Of a stretch of DNA of 64,000 nucleotides, positions 26,337 to 62,905 are shown piece by piece (the first letter of the stretch is position 1; each line of letters opens with the position of its first letter). The notes beneath the pieces were generated by a model that saw nothing but the letters and a program-made list of their open reading frames with translations, was not told where the DNA came from and made no database searches. The DNA comes from Mobula birostris (taxonomy: Eukaryota): assembly GCF_030028105.1 (NCBI RefSeq), contig NC_092379.1:87841006-87905005 (forward strand). Direction: 5' to 3'. The translations under genes were made by a program, and so were the position numbers.

Positions 26337-26663
26337 TTAGCGGAAGTTAGAGAAGTCGATGTTCATGCCATCAGGTTGGAGGCTACCCAGATGGAATATA
26401 AGGTGTTGTTCCTCCAACCTGAGTGTGGCTTCATCTTTACAGTAGAGGAGGCCGTGGATAGACATGTCAGAATGGGAATGGGATGTGGAATTAAAATGTG
26501 TGGCCACTGGGAGATCCTGCTTTCTCTGACGGACAGAGCGTAGATGTTCAGCAAAGCGGTCTCCCAGTCTGCGTCGGGTCTCGCCAATATATAAAAGGCC
26601 ACATCGGGAGCACTGGACGCAGTATATCACCCCAGCCGGCTCACAGGTGAAGTGTTGCCTCAC
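26337..26663 (-). pseudogene. PLE GIY-YIG endonuclease domain (open frame, 5'-truncated)
   Basis: GVIYCVQCSRCGLLYIGETRRRLGDRFAEHLRSV...LEEQHLIFHLGSLQPDGMN. Confidence 0.9.
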
Positions 26664-27035
26664 CTGGAAGGACTGTTTGGGGCCCTGAATGCCTCCAACC
26701 TGATGGCAAGAACATCAACTTCTCTAACTTACGCTAAGGCCCCACCTCCCCCTCGTACCCCATCTGTTACTTATTTTTATGCACACATTCTTTCTCTCAC
26801 TCTCCTTTTTCTCCCTCTGTCCCTCTGAATATACCTCTTGCCCATCCTCTGGGTCTCCCCCCCCCCACCCCGTCTTTCTTCCGAGACCTCCTGTCCCATG
26901 ATCCTCTCGTATCCCCTTTTGCCAATCACCTGTCCAGTTCTTGGCTCTATCCCTCCCCTCCTGTCTTCTCCTATCATTTTTGATCTCCCCCTCCCCCTCC
27001 AACTTTCAAATCCCTTACTCACTCTTCCTTCAGTT

Positions 27036-28444: not shown

Positions 28445-29055
28445 AATGCAGGATCTCCCAGTGGTTACAAATTTCATTAATCTTCCCATTCCCCTTTGGA
28501 CTTTTGTGTCCTTGTCCTCTTCTGCCATGATGAGGCTAAATTCAGGTTCAAGGAGCAACACCTTATATTCTGTCCGGGTAGCCTCCAATCTGATAGCATG
28601 AACATCCATTTCTCGACTTCTGGTGATTTCTTCTCCACCCCCACATCCTCTCTTTTCCTATTTCCAATTCTGGTTACTTTCTCACGCCTGATATTCTCCT
28701 CACCTGCCCATCACCTCCCTCTAGTTGCTCACCTCCTTTCCTCATGGTCCTCTTATCAGATTCCTTTTTATTCAGCCCTTTACCCTTTTCATCTATCCCC
28801 TCCCTACTTCTTACTTCATCCCTTCTCCCACACATGTCCACCTTCTCACCTCATCTCACCCATCACCTGACAGATCGTGCACCTCCCCACCCCCACCTCC
28901 TTATTTTGGCTTTTACCATCATCAATGTTCAATCCTGATAAAGGGTATCAGTCCGAAACATCGACTGTTTATTCTGTTTACAGATGCTGCTGAGTTTCTC
29001 CAGTATTTTCTGTGTATGGCTTAGGAATTCCAGCATATGCAGAATTGTTTGTTTT
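28445..29055 (+). mobile_element. Older PLE: GIY-YIG end and pLTR
   Basis: ORF 28496..28870 begins ..FKEQHLIFCPGSLQSDSMN; decayed hammerhead cctgataaag...ccgaaacatcgac near 28932-28966. Confidence 0.85.
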
Positions 29056-29159
29056 CTTTAAGGTAATATGTCTTTCAGCATATACCTGCTACATGTAGCT
29101 TGCTGTGACTTCTGTTATTCTGGCAGCTATTGGAAGAATTCCAGTAAACCTCTCAATAT

Positions 29160-29630
29160 GAAGACACACGAAAGGCTGCAGATACTGGGAACCTGGACAA
29201 AACACAAAATGCTGGAGGAAATCAGAAATTCAGGAAACATTCACAGAGGGAAAAGCACAGTTAAGATTTCAGGTTGACACCCTTCATCAGGGCTGGAAAG
29301 AAAGAGGAGAGATTATGGTCTAGAAGTGTTGGGGGGAATGGGTGAAGCTAGAGCTGGTGGGAGGGGAAGATGTGGAGGACAGGGGAGAGTGAGAATGATG
29401 GGAGGTGATGGGTGCAATTGACAAAGGGCTGAAGAAGTTGGAATCTGATGGAAAAGTGAGTGGATCATGGAATAAAGGGAAAGGGATCAGGAGGGAGGAA
29501 AGTATGTGTGATGCATAAATTGAGAGGGTAGGAGAGGGGAAAGAGAAGGGGTGATGGACCAATGTGATAAGGGGAAACAAGAGGGGGAGGGGAGAGGGGA
29601 GTAGTTACCACAAGTCAAAGAAATTAATGT
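29160..29630 (-). mobile_element. Older PLE pLTR
   Basis: acacaaaatgctggagga...cccttcatcagg (hammerhead remnant) followed by purine-rich pLTR body. Confidence 0.75.
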
Positions 29631-36699: not shown

Positions 36700-36993
36700 C
36701 AACACACATCAAGGTTGCTGGTGAACGTAGCAGGCCAGGCAGCATCTCTAGGAAGTGATACAGTCAACGTTTCAGGCCGAGACCCTTCGTCAGGGCTAAC
36801 TGAAGGAAGAACTAGTAAGAGTAAGATCAAGTCTCTTACTAGCTCTTCCTTCAGTTAGTCCTGATGAAGGGTCTCGGCCTGAAACGTCGACTGTACCTCT
36901 TCCTAGAGATGCTGCCTGGCCTGTTGCGTTCACCAGCAACTTTGATGTGCATTGCTTGAATTTCCAGCATCTGCAGAATTCCTCGTGTTTGCG
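36700..36993. mobile_element. PLE pLTR inverted repeat (122-bp arms, 11-nt spacer) with two hammerheads
   Basis: Arms 36700-36821 and 36833-36954, tail 36955-36993; flanking duplication atccagaaac(g/a)cat(a/g)caac at 36685-36703 and 36994-37012. Confidence 0.92.
36857..36892 (+). ncRNA. Minimal type I hammerhead ribozyme
   Basis: agtcCTGATGAagggtctcggcctGAAAcgTCgact. Confidence 0.85.
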
Positions 36994-46500: not shown

Positions 46501-47123
46501 AGAGTTTGAAAATTACGTTAGAATGGGGAGACGAGCTATGAGGTGTTGCATTCTTTCTCCAAATTATCAAGGACTTTGTGTGCTGCTGTTCCATGGCCTC
46601 TTGTTTTATTATAACACCACAATTGCTCTATTTCTGCTTTTTGTGGTTATGAGTCAGTGTTCCCAGAAGACAACAAGATGATGTGCATCTTTGAGAAAGA
46701 TTGGAAGAGATCCCTGAAAGTTCCGCTCTGTCTGCATGGAATAGAGTCAGAAAGATATGATGTGATTTACAGTCTGTTCTTGCATTAAGATGGAGGACAC
46801 TGTGGGAATGGTATCCAGTTCAATTCCAATGCAAAGCAAAATTAATGGGTAGTGCCTTCAAAGTAATATGCATAAAGTCAGTGACATAGAAAAGTAAAAC
46901 AAATTCTTCACTCAGCTATATGTTCTCCCAGTCTGTTTTTCTCAACAAGACAGAATTACATATCGCATCAGCTACTACCCCAAAGCAAAGAGGATGTAGA
47001 CTGTGAGATCTGATGTATCTCTGATTCCAGCCTGGAAGGAGCTAAAACTATATAAGTTCACTGATGCAGCACCTTGAAATTTGATCCTTGACCTGATCTG
47101 TGCTGCAGCTATGACAATTGCAA

Positions 47124-47172
47124 GCAACACACATCAAAGTTGCTGGTGAACGCAGCAGGCCAGGCAGGCAGA
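47124..47172 (-). mobile_element. 49-bp PLE 3'-end micro-insertion
   Basis: gcaacacacatcaaagttgctggtgaacgcagcaggccaggca flanked by TSD aattgcaa (47116-47123 and 47173-47180). Confidence 0.88.
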
Positions 47173-47550
47173 AATTGCAATCAGCAAGTTTCAGGAATGA
47201 TATCCTTGCCAAAGTGAAGACACTCTATATTTCAGATTTAGGTATGAGAACTGTTAAACAATGAACGTGTGATTGTTGTGCCCTTCTCTCATTGTCCATC
47301 TCTTAGCAGTTAGCCTCCTATGTTTGAAGACAAAGGAGACTGCAGCTGCTGTAATCTCCAAAAAAAAACAAAATATTCAGTCAACCAGCATGTGTGAAGG
47401 TCAAAGGTGTACATTAATGCTTCAGATCAAGATGTCAACATACCTAATGCAAGCTCCTGACTTAAAATATTGCCATGCACTTTTTGCCTCTGTAGATGCT
47501 GCTCCATTCATTGAATTCTTCAGTTTGTTATCTTGTCCTCTGCTCAATCA

Positions 47551-47832
47551 CATAAACACAAGAGATACTGCAGAAGCTGAGAAATGTTTATTTACAATGT
47601 CTGCAGAATCTCTTGTGTTTATCCCAGCATCTACAGAATCTCCTGTGTTTATTCCTGCATCTGCAGCGTCTCTTGTGTTTGTTCCAGTATCTGCAGGATC
47701 CTTTGTTATTATTTACAGCATCTGCAGAATCTCTTGTGTTTATTCCAGCATCTACAGAATCTCTTGTATTTATTCCTGCATTTGCAGAGTCTCTTCTGTT
47801 TATTTCAGCATCTGCATAATCTCTTGTACTTA
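47551..47832 (+). repeat. 30-bp minisatellite (about 8 units plus 1 inverted unit) derived from the PLE 3' tail
   Basis: Unit ctgcagaatctcttgtgtttattccagcat starts at 47601, 47631, 47661, 47691, 47722, 47752, 47782 and 47812; inverted unit at 47551-47580. Confidence 0.9.
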
Positions 47833-48049
47833 TGATTTGCTTCACCATTGTGAAATATCTTTCAGTACAGTTTACCTACACTGAAAAAGTTTAAATCTTC
47901 TCTTTGACAGAATTCAGTGAAACCCTCTCTCACTGCTCCTCCTCTGTGGTCTCATTCCAGACTCTGTTCAGTCACGCTTTTGAAGTAATATGGCTGCTGG
48001 TGCACTTATACTGTGAGTGGCCAGTCCCCTACCACTTGTGTCTCTTGTG

Positions 48050-48765
48050 TCAGTGGCCACTGAGTGTATGTTTGTAGTCCTCTGGCGCTGCAGCTCATCC
48101 ACTACTTGATCTGATGTGCTGTGCGTTCACAAATGCTCTTCGGCACACTGCTGTTGAAATGCATGGTTATTTGAGTTACTGTCACCTTCCTTGTTAATGA
48201 GCGAGGTCAGAGCAGAATGACCAGGTTGGATCAAGATGACTATTGAACCAATCAGGCCATTCATATAACATAGAACATAGAATAGTACAGCACAGTACAG
48301 GCCCTTCGGCCCACAATGTTGTGCCGATCCTCAAACCCTGCCTCCCATATAACCCCCCACCTTAAATTCCTCCACATACCTGTCTAGTAGTCTCTTAAAT
48401 TTCACTAGTTCACCTCTGACCCTTCTAATTAACAAGGCACTTTCACCCTTAGATTGTCACTCACTGATTTTTTTGTTTATCACATCATTCTCTATAACCT
48501 CTAGAGACTGTTGTGTATAAAATTCACAAGAGATCTGCAGTTTCCGCGAAACTGTAACCACCCATCTGGCACCATGGTTCTATGGTCAATGTCACTGAGA
48601 CCAAATGTTGATGTTTGGTCTGAACAAAAAATCAACCTCAAACTTTTCTCTTGATCTTGTCTGCATGCTTTTATGCGTTGAGTTACTGCCACATGAATGG
48701 CTGATCAGTAATTTGCATTAATAAGCAGGTGGCCAGCTGTACCTAATACAATGGCCATTGATTGC
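48050..48765 (-). mobile_element. Tc1/mariner deletion derivative with a nested CR1 3' end (about 48265-48408)
   Basis: tcagtggccactgagtgta left end; tgtacctaatacaatggccattga right TIR; homologous to the 18243 and 59289 copies. Confidence 0.8.
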
Positions 48766-48915
48766 CTATCTGGAAGTAATTGTTTTCTGCAGAGTCACAA
48801 AACATGACTGCCCAAAGGACAGGCATAGCAGTCAAGACAAATTCTAACTCAAAGAACTGTTGCACTGCTCTCCATTGTAGATGTTTGCAACTCAAAACAT
48901 CTTTAGAAAGCAGAA

Positions 48916-49070
48916 CTCACAACACGCTGGAGGAAATCAGCAGGTCGGGCAGCATCTGTGGAAACGATCAGTCAATGTTTTGGGCTGGAACCCTTCATCA
49001 GGACTGAAGAGGGAAGGGGCAGAGGCCCTATAGTGTTGCTTTGACCCTGGCATCTGCAGAGTATTTTGTG
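48916..49070. mobile_element. Short PLE insertion: minus-strand pLTR plus inverted tail
   Basis: Hammerhead remnant 48970-49005 (-); tail gtgttgc...gcatctgcagagtattttgtg on +; TSD tttagaaagc(a/g)gaa at 48902-48915 and 49071-49084. Confidence 0.82.
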
Positions 49071-49144
49071 TTTAGAAAGCGGAAAACATCAGTAGAAGTT
49101 CAAAGTTCAAAACTTTAAGTACATTTATTATCAAAGTATGTATA

Positions 49145-52744: not shown

Positions 52745-52958
52745 ACAAATTGTCATATTACCTGATTTATCATCTTGTGTTTCTCTCTCCCCTCCCCGCA
52801 CCTTTTAAATCAGTTTTCTTTCTCCAGTCCTGCAGCAGGGTTTTGGCCCAAAATGTCAACTGCACTCTTTTCCCAGATACTGCCTGGCCTGCCAAGTTCC
52901 TCCAGCATTTTGTGTGTGTTGCTCGGATTTCCGGCATCTGCAGATTTTCTCATGTTTG
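52745..52958 (+). mobile_element. Older PLE pLTR end with tail
   Basis: Decayed hammerhead near 52826-52861; ...ttccggcatctgcagattttctcatgtttg. Confidence 0.8.
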
Positions 52959-55893: not shown

Positions 55894-57151
55894 CTTTCTT
55901 ATAATACTCCTATCATTAAAATATATGCATTTAAGAAATTTTTCACCTCTTACTCTCTGTTTATCACTGATGGTGCAAACAACTTTACTATTTTCTTTTT
56001 CTCCCTTCTCCCCTACTTCTGTTCCTATACCCTGGTTCCTCTCCCCCCTTGTATCTAGTTTAAATCCACTGGAGCCTCTCTAGCAAACCTACCTGCAAGA
56101 ATATTTGTCCCCCTCCAGTTCAAATGTAAACCATCCCACTGGAGCAGGTCTCACCTTCCCTAGAAAACTGCCCAATTATCTACAAATCCGTAGCCCTCCC
56201 TCCTGCACCATGTCTTCAGCCATGTGTTGATGTGCGCTATCTTACTATTTCTAAACCCGCCTGCATGTGGCTGTGGTAGCAATCCTGAGATTGCTGTCCT
56301 AGAGATCCTGTCCTTTCACTTGGTGCCTAACTCCCTAACTCACCTTTCAGGACCTTCTCACTCTTCATAGCCACATCATTAATCCCTACATGGACCACGA
56401 CATCCGGCTGCTCACCCTCCCTCTTGAGAATACTGAGAACTCAATCTGAGATATCGCGGACCTTGGCACCAGGGAGGCAACAGACCATCCAGGATTCTCA
56501 ATCTCTTCCACAGAACCTCTTATCTGTCCTCTTAATTATCAAATCCCCTATCACCACTGCTCTCCTCTTTTCCCTCCTTCCCTTCTGAGCTAAGGACCCC
56601 TCTCGGTGCCAGAGACGCAACCACTGCAACTTGTCCCTGGTAGGTCGTCCCCATCAACAGTGTCCAAAAGCATGTACTTATTATTGGTGGGAACGGCCAC
56701 AGGGGTGCTCTGCTCATTCTGTCTATTCCCCTTCCCTCTCCTGACAGCCACCTAGCTATCTGTCTCCTGACTCTTAGGGGTGACTCTCTCCCTGTAACTC
56801 CTGTTTATTTCTGCCTCTGCCTCCCGAATGATCTGAAGTTCATCCAGCTCCAGCTCCAGTTTCCTAACTTGGTTTGTCAGGAGCTGCAGATGGATGCACC
56901 TTTTACAGGTGTAGTCATCAGGGACGATTGTTCTCACCCTGACTTCCCACATACTGCAAACGGAGCACTCAACTGCCCTAGCTGCTGCCTCCATTACCTA
57001 CTCTTAAGGTAATTAGATTTATTAAAGGAACTTACCTGGCCTTACCTCACTTGGAGTGAAGCTCTTCCTCAGCCTCTGCTCGTCGAAGCCTCAGGAGCCA
57101 AAGCCTTCCTACTCTGTCTCCCACTACTCCGTCGCCCGCTCTGTTAATCTG

Positions 57152-57332
57152 GCTTTTAAACACTCCCGCTGCCTCATGGTCCGACTTACACGTGCTTGCA
57201 CAGTCATGCCCTGTTCAACTGCCGAAGAAATGACCAACCTTCACAACCTTCTCGCTTTTAAACACTCCCGCTGTCTCACGGTCCGACTTACATGCACTTG
57301 CGCAGTCGTGCCCCATTCAACTGCCGAAGAAG
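57152..57332. repeat. Direct duplication of about 78 bp in the CR1 5' UTR
   Basis: gcttttaaacactcccgctg...ttcaactgccgaagaa at about 57152-57229 and 57254-57331. Confidence 0.85.
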
Positions 57333-58775: not shown

Positions 58776-58829
58776 GGACCCCCAAAATGTAACTAACACC
58801 ACGGATCCCCAAAATGTAACTAACACCAC
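58776..58829. repeat. 27-bp tandem duplication
   Basis: gga(c/t)ccccaaaatgtaactaacaccac twice. Confidence 0.9.
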
Positions 58830-59288
58830 GGCTTTAACTCACAGGGAATACTCAGAATCAACTCACATCGAGTACCCAGCATTCAGACACTTTAATATGA
58901 GCCTGGAGGACCTCTGGGCATTGTTTGAGTAGAGAACTTCCCTCCTCTTTCCACATCATATTTCCATGGGTGTCCGCACTACTTCAGAAAATCTGTATCT
59001 GCTCCAAACTACTAGCCGAATGACCTCCATCATCAGTTCACATCACAGTATACCTCTATATGCCCCCTCTAATCATCATTAGCTACCCTGAACTGGTGCT
59101 AGCCTCTCATTAAATTGGTCCCCATGATGATGTATGCAGCACAGTTGGTGTCGACTGTTAGCAAATCATCATAGTGCACAGGTCAGGTAATATTTTTATA
59201 CCTCCACAGGAGCAATGTGATGACTAACAATAATAGCAATTAAATTTTAAAGGTAGAGCTCAATGCACATGAAATACTGTATCATTTA

Positions 59289-61599: not shown

Positions 61600-62905
61600 A
61601 ATCTCTGAAGAAAGTTCATCTACTGATCTTTATAAACTCACTGATGCTCACAGCTACCTGAACTATACATCTTCCCACCCGGTCACTTGTAAAAATGCCA
61701 TCCTCTTCTCTCAGTTCCTCCATCCCCACCGTATCTGCTCTCAGGATGAAGCATTTCATTTCAGAACTAATGAGATGACTTCCTTCTTCAAGGAAAGGGG
61801 TTTTCCTTCCTCCACCATCAACACTTTCCTCACATGCATTACTTCCATTTCACACTCATCTGCTTTCACCCTACCCTCTCACCATCCCATCAGGGACAGG
61901 ATTTGTCTTGTCCTCACCCACACCCCACCAACCTCCGTGTCCAGCAAATAATTCTTTATAACTTACACCATCTCCAGCAGGATTCCACCACCAAGCACAT
62001 CTTTCTCTCCCCCCACCATGTTCTTCTTAGGTGAATCCCTCATCCATTTATCTCTCTCCACTTATACCCCTCCTGGTACTTATCCTTGCAAGTGGAACAA
62101 GTGCCACATTGTCCCCTACACCTCCTTCCTCACCACCATTCAGTCCTTCCAGATGAGGTGACACTTCACCTGTGAGTCTGTTGGGGTCATCTACTATATC
62201 CTGTGCTCCCAGTGTGGCCTCCTGTATGTCAGTGAGACTCGATGTAGATGGGGAGACTGTTTTGTCGAGCATCTATGCTCCATCCGCCACAAAAAGCAGG
62301 TTCTCCTGGTAGCCACTCATTTCATTTCTACTTTACATCCCGCTTCCAACATGTCAACTCACAGCCTCCTCTACTGTCACAATGAGACCACACTCAGGTT
62401 GGAGAAGCAACACCTTATATTCCATTTGGTTAGCCTCCAACCTGAAGGCATGAACCTCGATTTCTTAAACTTCTGGTATTTGCCTCCCCCACTCTCCTTC
62501 ACCATCCCCCATTCCCATTTCCCTCTCTCACATTACCACTTTACCTGCACATCACCTCCTTCTTGTGCTCCTCCCACTTCCCTTTCCTCCATGGCTTTCC
62601 ATCCTCTCCAATCAGATTCCTCCTTCTTCAGCCTTTATCTCTTCCAACAATCTCCCTGCTCTTTATTTCATCACTTCCCCTCTCCAGGCATCTTCACCTA
62701 TCAGCTACCACCTTGTACTTCTTCCTCCCCTTCTCCTACCTTCTTACTCTAACTTTTCATCTTTTGTTCCATTCCTGATGAACGGTCTCAGCCCGAAACA
62801 TTGATTATTTACTCTGTTCCATGGTTGCTGCCATGCCTGCTGAGTTCCTCCAGCATTTTGTGTGGGGTGCTTTGATTTCCAGCATCCACAGATTTTCTCA
62901 TGTTG
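61600..62905 (+). mobile_element. Neptune-type PLE (RT end, GIY-YIG, pLTR with hammerhead near 62771-62806)
   Basis: ORF 62351..62752 LEKQHLIFHLVSLQPEGMN; cCTGATGAacggtctcagcccGAAAcatt; ttgctatt duplicated at 61591-61598 and 62910-62917. Confidence 0.88.

Follow-up and report, generated by a model that had tools for sequence, protein, structure and literature searches.

The locus at positions 47551 to 47832 of the window (i.e., the whole 64-kb stretch of DNA analyzed here) raises the question of how the short tail of a PLE pLTR came to be repeated in tandem. A preliminary description of this DNA proposed that the PLE RT copied the tail repeatedly by re-priming, in the manner of telomerase, and that a later duplication enlarged the array.

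The window consists of AT-rich DNA of vertebrate type with many broken retroelement frames, and its repeat types would suit a cartilaginous fish. One of the six frames tested (26340 to 26714) matched the Pfam GIY-YIG domain above the cut-off (E = 6.6e-5). It lies ~300 nt from a tailed pLTR (26044 to 25904), and a frame preceding the pLTR at 62770 is 68% identical to it. The assignment of the local pLTR families to PLEs rests on this match, the 68% identical frame, and the presence of typical inverted pairs. One such pair (48907 to 49073) has a tailed plus arm (49032 to 49073) made of ~15 nt of body and the tail, and is thus a near-minimal two-armed insertion. Two old tailed pLTRs at 28930 to 29300 lie tail to tail, ~105 nt apart, which is a less usual orientation. 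An Rfam search for hammerhead ribozymes returned nothing at the gathering score, and none of the 10 weak matches was a hammerhead. Weak matches to microRNA families were discarded, since they only reflect the hairpin of inverted pLTRs. A motif that we take to resemble a minimal hammerhead recurs 10 times in the window sequence.

TRF placed an array with a period of 30 nt at 47600 to 47827 (7.6 copies; 78% matches; score, 293) and a second period of 121 nt at 47588 to 47816 (1.9 copies; 88%; score, 374); the tail array accounts for 3 of the 18 TRF rows in the window. Aligned in phase, the units start at 47590, 47621, 47651, 47681, 47711, 47742, 47772, and 47802, and the last ends at 47831 (lengths of 31, 30, 30, 30, 31, 30, 30, and 30 nt), in agreement with the approximately eight 30-nt units originally reported. 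All of them lie on the plus strand. Units 1 to 4 form a first 121-bp block (47590 to 47710) and units 5 to 8 a second (47711 to 47831), which differs from the first at 18 of 121 places. Individual units differ from the majority unit at 2 to 7 positions (30 in total over the eight units), and the longest exact repeat within the array is 23 nt. The units are arranged head to tail, belong to the 10- to 100-nt size class, and are at least 70% like a TE, as is the case for TE-derived minisatellites.

The single inverted unit that had been noticed ahead of the array was found at 47552 to 47585 on the minus strand (tail positions 1 to 33). It is 75 to 96% complementary to the direct units and stands head to head with unit 1 across a 4-nt spacer (GTTT; 47586 to 47589), the letters of which are the last four of a unit. 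The inverted unit and unit 1 form a DNA hairpin (−21.8 kcal/mol; z = −7.4). No TSD was recognized around the whole structure; the AT common to its two ends follows from the sequence of the family itself, which has AT after the tail. There is no ORF at the array locus, and the evidence for PLE ORFs comes from related copies. A 203-amino-acid stop-free frame over the array (47273 to 47884) has no Pfam match and was taken as an artifact of the 30-nt period.

The pLTR tails quoted in the preliminary description are present at 36961 and 52929, and the array unit aligns to the segment that separates tailed from tailless arms, as had been proposed. When seven young pLTR arms were compared with the copy at 36850, three ended at tail position 1 or 2 and two reached positions 27 to 31; one of the others ended 10 nt earlier, and one was ambiguous (position 3 by BLAST, position 17 by a gapped aligner). 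These end points indicate a tail of ~30 nt, which the unit matches at both ends. The inverted unit also respects both boundaries. Members of the family consist of a body followed by ATTT...GTGTTT and then by AT and GATT, such that AT occurs at tail positions 1 and 2 and again at 32 and 33. At the internal junctions of the array, tail position 32-33 is joined to position 3-4, within the ATTT.

We aligned contigs from 4 of 16 listed runs (one run per organism) to 47190 to 48240 at 80% likeness. Thousands of paralogous contigs stack on unit 5, and in all four runs the loose ends preceding 47711 yield a single consensus that is 29/30 identical (by eye) to pLTR body sequence at 52898 to 52926. This pile of contigs, together with its pLTR-body ends, indicates that the unit derives from an abundant subfamily. 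Since other loose ends carry GATT before diverging, the 3′ end of the subfamily tail is uncertain and the 3′ register is fixed to within ~5 nt. Thus, the array is built from the PLE pLTR tail, and its units keep the tail register at both ends (at the 3′ end, within ~5 nt); this register is the strongest point in favor of the re-priming proposal.

The variants said to be shared by units 2 and 6, by units 3 and 7, and by the letters before units 1 and 5 are all present, and a further one was found at column 7 of units 3 and 7. Among the seven shared derived columns, five fall at lag 4, one at lag 2, and one at lag 3. The lag-4 columns bear out the proposed later doubling of a 4-mer by a 121-bp DNA-level duplication: the probability of at least five columns at lag 4 was 0.001 by simulation (0.025 for any lag), and permutation of the unit order gave 0.019 for lag 4 and a nonsignificant 0.13 for any lag. 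About 7% divergence has accumulated per block since the doubling. Among the four ancestral units, no substitution is shared, and their relationships are star-like. The lack of any variant common to all of them suggests that amplification occurred early. The ancestral 4-mer has three internal junctions, all of 30 nt and all without the same T; unit 1 reaches position 1. Given that the same T is missing three times, a single junction that was then copied is a simpler explanation than three separate re-primings.

The preliminary description had the RT copying the terminal 30 nt of the element, but paralogous contigs show that the array itself is not terminal. The tail end at 47743 is joined to 47876 to 47913 in 10 contigs of run X1, 12 of run X5, and 1 of run X9 (5 of the 15 joints listed, of 118). 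In addition, 8 of the 12 bridging sequences listed (of 39) link the tail to post-tail element sequence, and one is identical at 26 of 32 positions (by eye) to 47834 to 47865. Contig depth, the ratios of which are not copy numbers, is ~10,800 up to 47945 and falls to 11 by 47982, near that of the unique flank (~10). Since paralogous contigs pass from the tail into the homologue of 47834 to ~47950, the array is internal to an element fragment, and ~115 nt of the same high-copy element (47832 to 47950, plus strand) follow it.

Other contig joints were seen around the array. A high-copy repeat for which no family was named (48052 to 48191) begins 100 nt past the PLE fragment, and two to three contigs per run connect a PLE tail end to its start. 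In run X5, two contigs (joints 47620-47720 and 47624-47721) show a tail, 14 to 17 other letters, and a second, partial tail match, with a spacing of ~39 nt; these are possibly tail dimers at another register or the product of chance.

We considered whether the eight units might be a mis-joined 4-mer. The four units found in organism B are in keeping with such an assembly artifact, but the blocks differ at the 18 places given above, and contigs of organism A match 47190 to 47651 and 47744 to 47904 with 0 differences. These spans include units 1 and 2 and units 6 to 8, although no single contig crosses all eight. We therefore regard an artifact as highly improbable, and the difference-free contigs indicate that both 121-bp blocks exist.

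The organism-B evidence is a single contig (694 nt; depth, 8.8) from one of four organism-B runs. This contig aligns to 47190 to 47688 and then to 47810 to 47942; i.e., it lacks the 121 bp at 47689 to 47809 and carries a hybrid of units 4 and 8 with 7 nt of identity at the junction. Compared with the window, it also carries insertions of 14 nt at 47282 and 1 nt at 47258. In runs X9 and X13, the orthologous array lies outside the coverage. Collapse in the assembly graph is unlikely, since the longest exact repeat is too short for a 31-mer graph (the word size being our deduction). Organisms A and B diverge by ~1.5%, compared with 15% (18/121) between the blocks, and a duplication after their split has a probability of 3e−8. 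On the basis of these values, the 121-bp difference is likely a DNA-level contraction in organism B rather than a recent gain in organism A. Overall, the array is real, derived from the PLE tail, and likely resized by DNA-level events.

A decayed inverted pLTR pair had also been reported just upstream of the array. Its minus arm is probably an old pLTR with a tail (47326 to 47435; tail core, 47340 to 47351). The alignment of this arm to the copy at 29160 gave a score reached by 0 of 300 shuffles (2 to 84 of 300 for other copies), and an organism-D contig covers 47283 to 47368 with 8 letters different. The plus arm (47440 to 47546) is probably an old pLTR that ends about where the tail would begin; its matches were reached by 1 to 21 of 300 shuffles. 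The best matches to other pLTRs were reached by 0 to 2 of 300 shuffles, but 5 of 10 comparisons were equaled by 12 to 84 of 300. An alignment of the two arms to each other was not significant (86/500 shuffles). The pair is therefore plausible but weak.

Three other features of the region were noted. A young 52-nt tailless pLTR fragment (47116 to 47167) lies 160 nt to the left of the old pair, an instance of PLE pieces clustering locally. The unit 2/6 variant, which may be a chance transition or a templated conversion, creates a perfect 13-nt inverted match between the upstream arm body (47489 to 47501) and both 47625 to 47637 and 47746 to 47758. A C-to-A variant near the tail start is common to the old minus arm (47340 to 47354) and units 1 and 5 (47711 to 47719); it could reflect a common template and is not significant alone.

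Recurrence was sought within the window and among the contigs. None of the nine other tails in the window is tandem, and no paralogous piece spanning three units occurs among the longest pieces listed (32 of 26,063). Immediately past unit 5, contig depth drops to ~1% of its value on that unit. This test is a weak one, as young repeats interrupt contigs and arrays of the same age may fall below 80% likeness. Scans for tandem tail cores returned 17 viral and 18 metagenome loci, and none of the 35 is a PLE tail array; most are coding repeats, and one locus has a 30-nt chance-level match lacking a pLTR body. These collections contain no evident host DNA, so they say nothing about recurrence.

How, then, were the first units made? 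In the telomerase-like explanation, they (i.e., the first three or four) stem from one event: having copied the tail, the PLE RT annealed anew at the tail end for another round of copying, with the remainder made at the DNA level. More specifically, a Poseidon-type RT would run from the distal to the proximal initiation site, re-anneal through 1 to 2 nt, and recopy the tail; the 4-mer and the spacer, as a partial fifth round, would be a fossil of repeat addition. The general form is, in our estimation, unlikely, and the specific one is a tentative suggestion that is probably incorrect. The unit keeps its register at both RT-related boundaries, the ancestral 4-mer is star-like, and the spacer matches the four bases with which an additional round of copying would begin. 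Among eukaryotic RTs, those of PLEs are nearest to TERT (PMC12632851), and the LINE UnaL2 uses telomerase-like template slippage on 5-nt repeats (PMC1636434).

However, the array is internal rather than terminal, and telomerase-type addition requires an alignment segment and a boundary element (PMC12632851). The only possible alignment segment (unit end equal to template start) is 1 nt for a 30-nt junction or 2 nt for AT; re-annealing on AT predicts 31-nt units, while the three internal junctions are 30 nt with the same T missing. Protein-free folding of RNA from two decayed pLTR copies, performed in search of a template boundary, was no better than shuffles (z = 0.65 and 0.41). The nontandem state of the nine other tails, the lack of any listed paralogous piece of more than three units, and the drop in depth after unit 5 also argue against repeated addition, and the main text of the in vitro Poseidon paper reports no repeat addition (PMC11167929). 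As for a telomeric setting, the 64-kb window contains no TTAGGG or CCCTAA dimer. Of the original re-priming proposal, the exact tail register and the 121-bp doubling stand, whereas the internal position, an overlap of only 1 to 2 nt, and the 30-nt junctions count against it. A telomerase-like origin of the first few units is possible but unsupported.

A purely DNA-level birth would confine PLE enzymes to the original insertion. Slippage on the 1- to 2-nt overlap (AT at the tail start and just after the tail) would produce the direct units and a fold-back template switch the inverted one. Every dated change at the locus is indeed DNA-level, AT occupies the required positions at both ends of the family's tail, and the spacer and unit 1 together have the form of a 31-nt AT-overlap junction. 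Moreover, many minisatellites derive from TEs (23% of those in humans; PMC3389668), and TRF found other two-copy tandem duplications, unrelated to the tail, in the window (57148 to 57331 [102 nt] and 58776 to 58831 [27 nt]). This explanation needs luck or weak microhomology, though, for the unit and the inverted copy each to hit both tail boundaries. A 1- to 2-nt overlap is also far below the 5- to 20-nt flanking repeats of the slippage model (PMC3389668), and no more than ~10 nt separate the start of the array from the point where a tailless pLTR arm ends. We consider this explanation conceivable but doubtful.

The explanation that we favor, with moderate confidence, is that of an old PLE-tail minisatellite within an element fragment. 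It would have arisen through renewed targeting of the tail site by the enzyme of the element itself, with tail-only pieces as the product, and would then have been enlarged and cut back by slippage or unequal exchange. For Anolis Poseidon, the one PLE studied in vitro, two RT start sites delimit the tail. Cleavage and extension occur on both strands, with ATT as the preferred cut, and the pLTR of the element has itself been proposed as a target (PMC11167929). The array junction, within the ATTT, may be compared with this cut preference. Head-to-head inverted, 5′-truncated, and partial-tandem copies are normal for PLEs (PMC8557442, PMC3846280).

Under the self-targeting explanation, the GIY-YIG nuclease would nick both strands at the ATTT of a resident copy's tail start, and each nicked end would prime cDNA synthesis from the tail end, halting ~31 nt on. 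The product would be an inverted tail, a direct tail, and the resident tail with its downstream sequence; alternatively, a staggered cut at both tail boundaries followed by fill-in would give an identical register. Next, the two adjacent identical tails, lying by a 33-bp palindrome, may have become four early on, with one junction copied. The 4-mer then diverged by ~3% before its 121-bp doubling into eight units, which the shared variants record. Finally, exchange between units 4 and 8 would have removed 121 bp from a sister-species haplotype, in which the length difference is observed and its direction is the probable one. The self-targeting step is extrapolated from one old locus and, by analogy, from the enzyme of a lizard element. 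It leaves unaccounted for the exact stop of both arms at tail position 1 and the GTTT spacer, which looks as though another round had begun, and the absence of a substitution common to the four ancestral units is also predicted by a single-event origin. One old locus cannot separate the self-targeting, purely DNA-level, and RT-reiteration origins. No function is implied for the array.

As best explained, the array is a PLE-derived minisatellite with a datable history (from four to eight to four units), and it hints that the PLE machinery returns to the tail site of its own element. If the first units did result from RT re-priming, the locus would connect the processivity of telomerase with a mobile element; we met no report of repeat addition by a PLE RT in the portions of the literature examined. 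Given the tail register, this question can be tested directly, both across the genome and with the in vitro system already available. A search of open-access literature found no tail-only PLE minisatellite, which is not proof that none has been reported.

Among known systems, repeat addition by telomerase and DRT10 and slippage by UnaL2 (PMC12632851, PMC1636434) likewise yield head-to-tail copies of a short bounded template, but our array has no clear alignment segment or boundary element, is internal with a 30-nt unit, and is a single old locus known from sequence alone. Non-LTR retrozymes, reported in one chondrichthyan as well, are also tandem repeats that arose from the terminal repeat of a PLE and then expanded locally (bioRxiv 10.64898/2026.07.22.740005). 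Their units are 51 to 972 bp long and contain a hammerhead, whereas the 30-nt array unit maps downstream of the hammerhead region. A retrozyme identity was rejected, as the units consist of tail sequence only, lacking the type I hammerhead expected in every unit. TE-derived minisatellites, Alu-derived and others (PMC3389668), resemble the array in their TE-cut unit, local expansion, higher-order duplication, and lineage differences in copy number; here, there is no 5- to 20-nt flanking direct repeat, and the unit is a functional module of the element. The complex insertions of EN+ Penelope/Poseidon elements, with their one-sided 30- to 40-bp tail (PMC8557442, PMC3846280, PMC11167929), share with it the head-to-head inverted copy, the 5′-truncated partial tandems, a tail bounded by two fixed sites, a junction at an ATT motif, and a site in or beside another copy. 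What distinguishes the present array from these insertions is that every piece is tail-only and repeated eight times.
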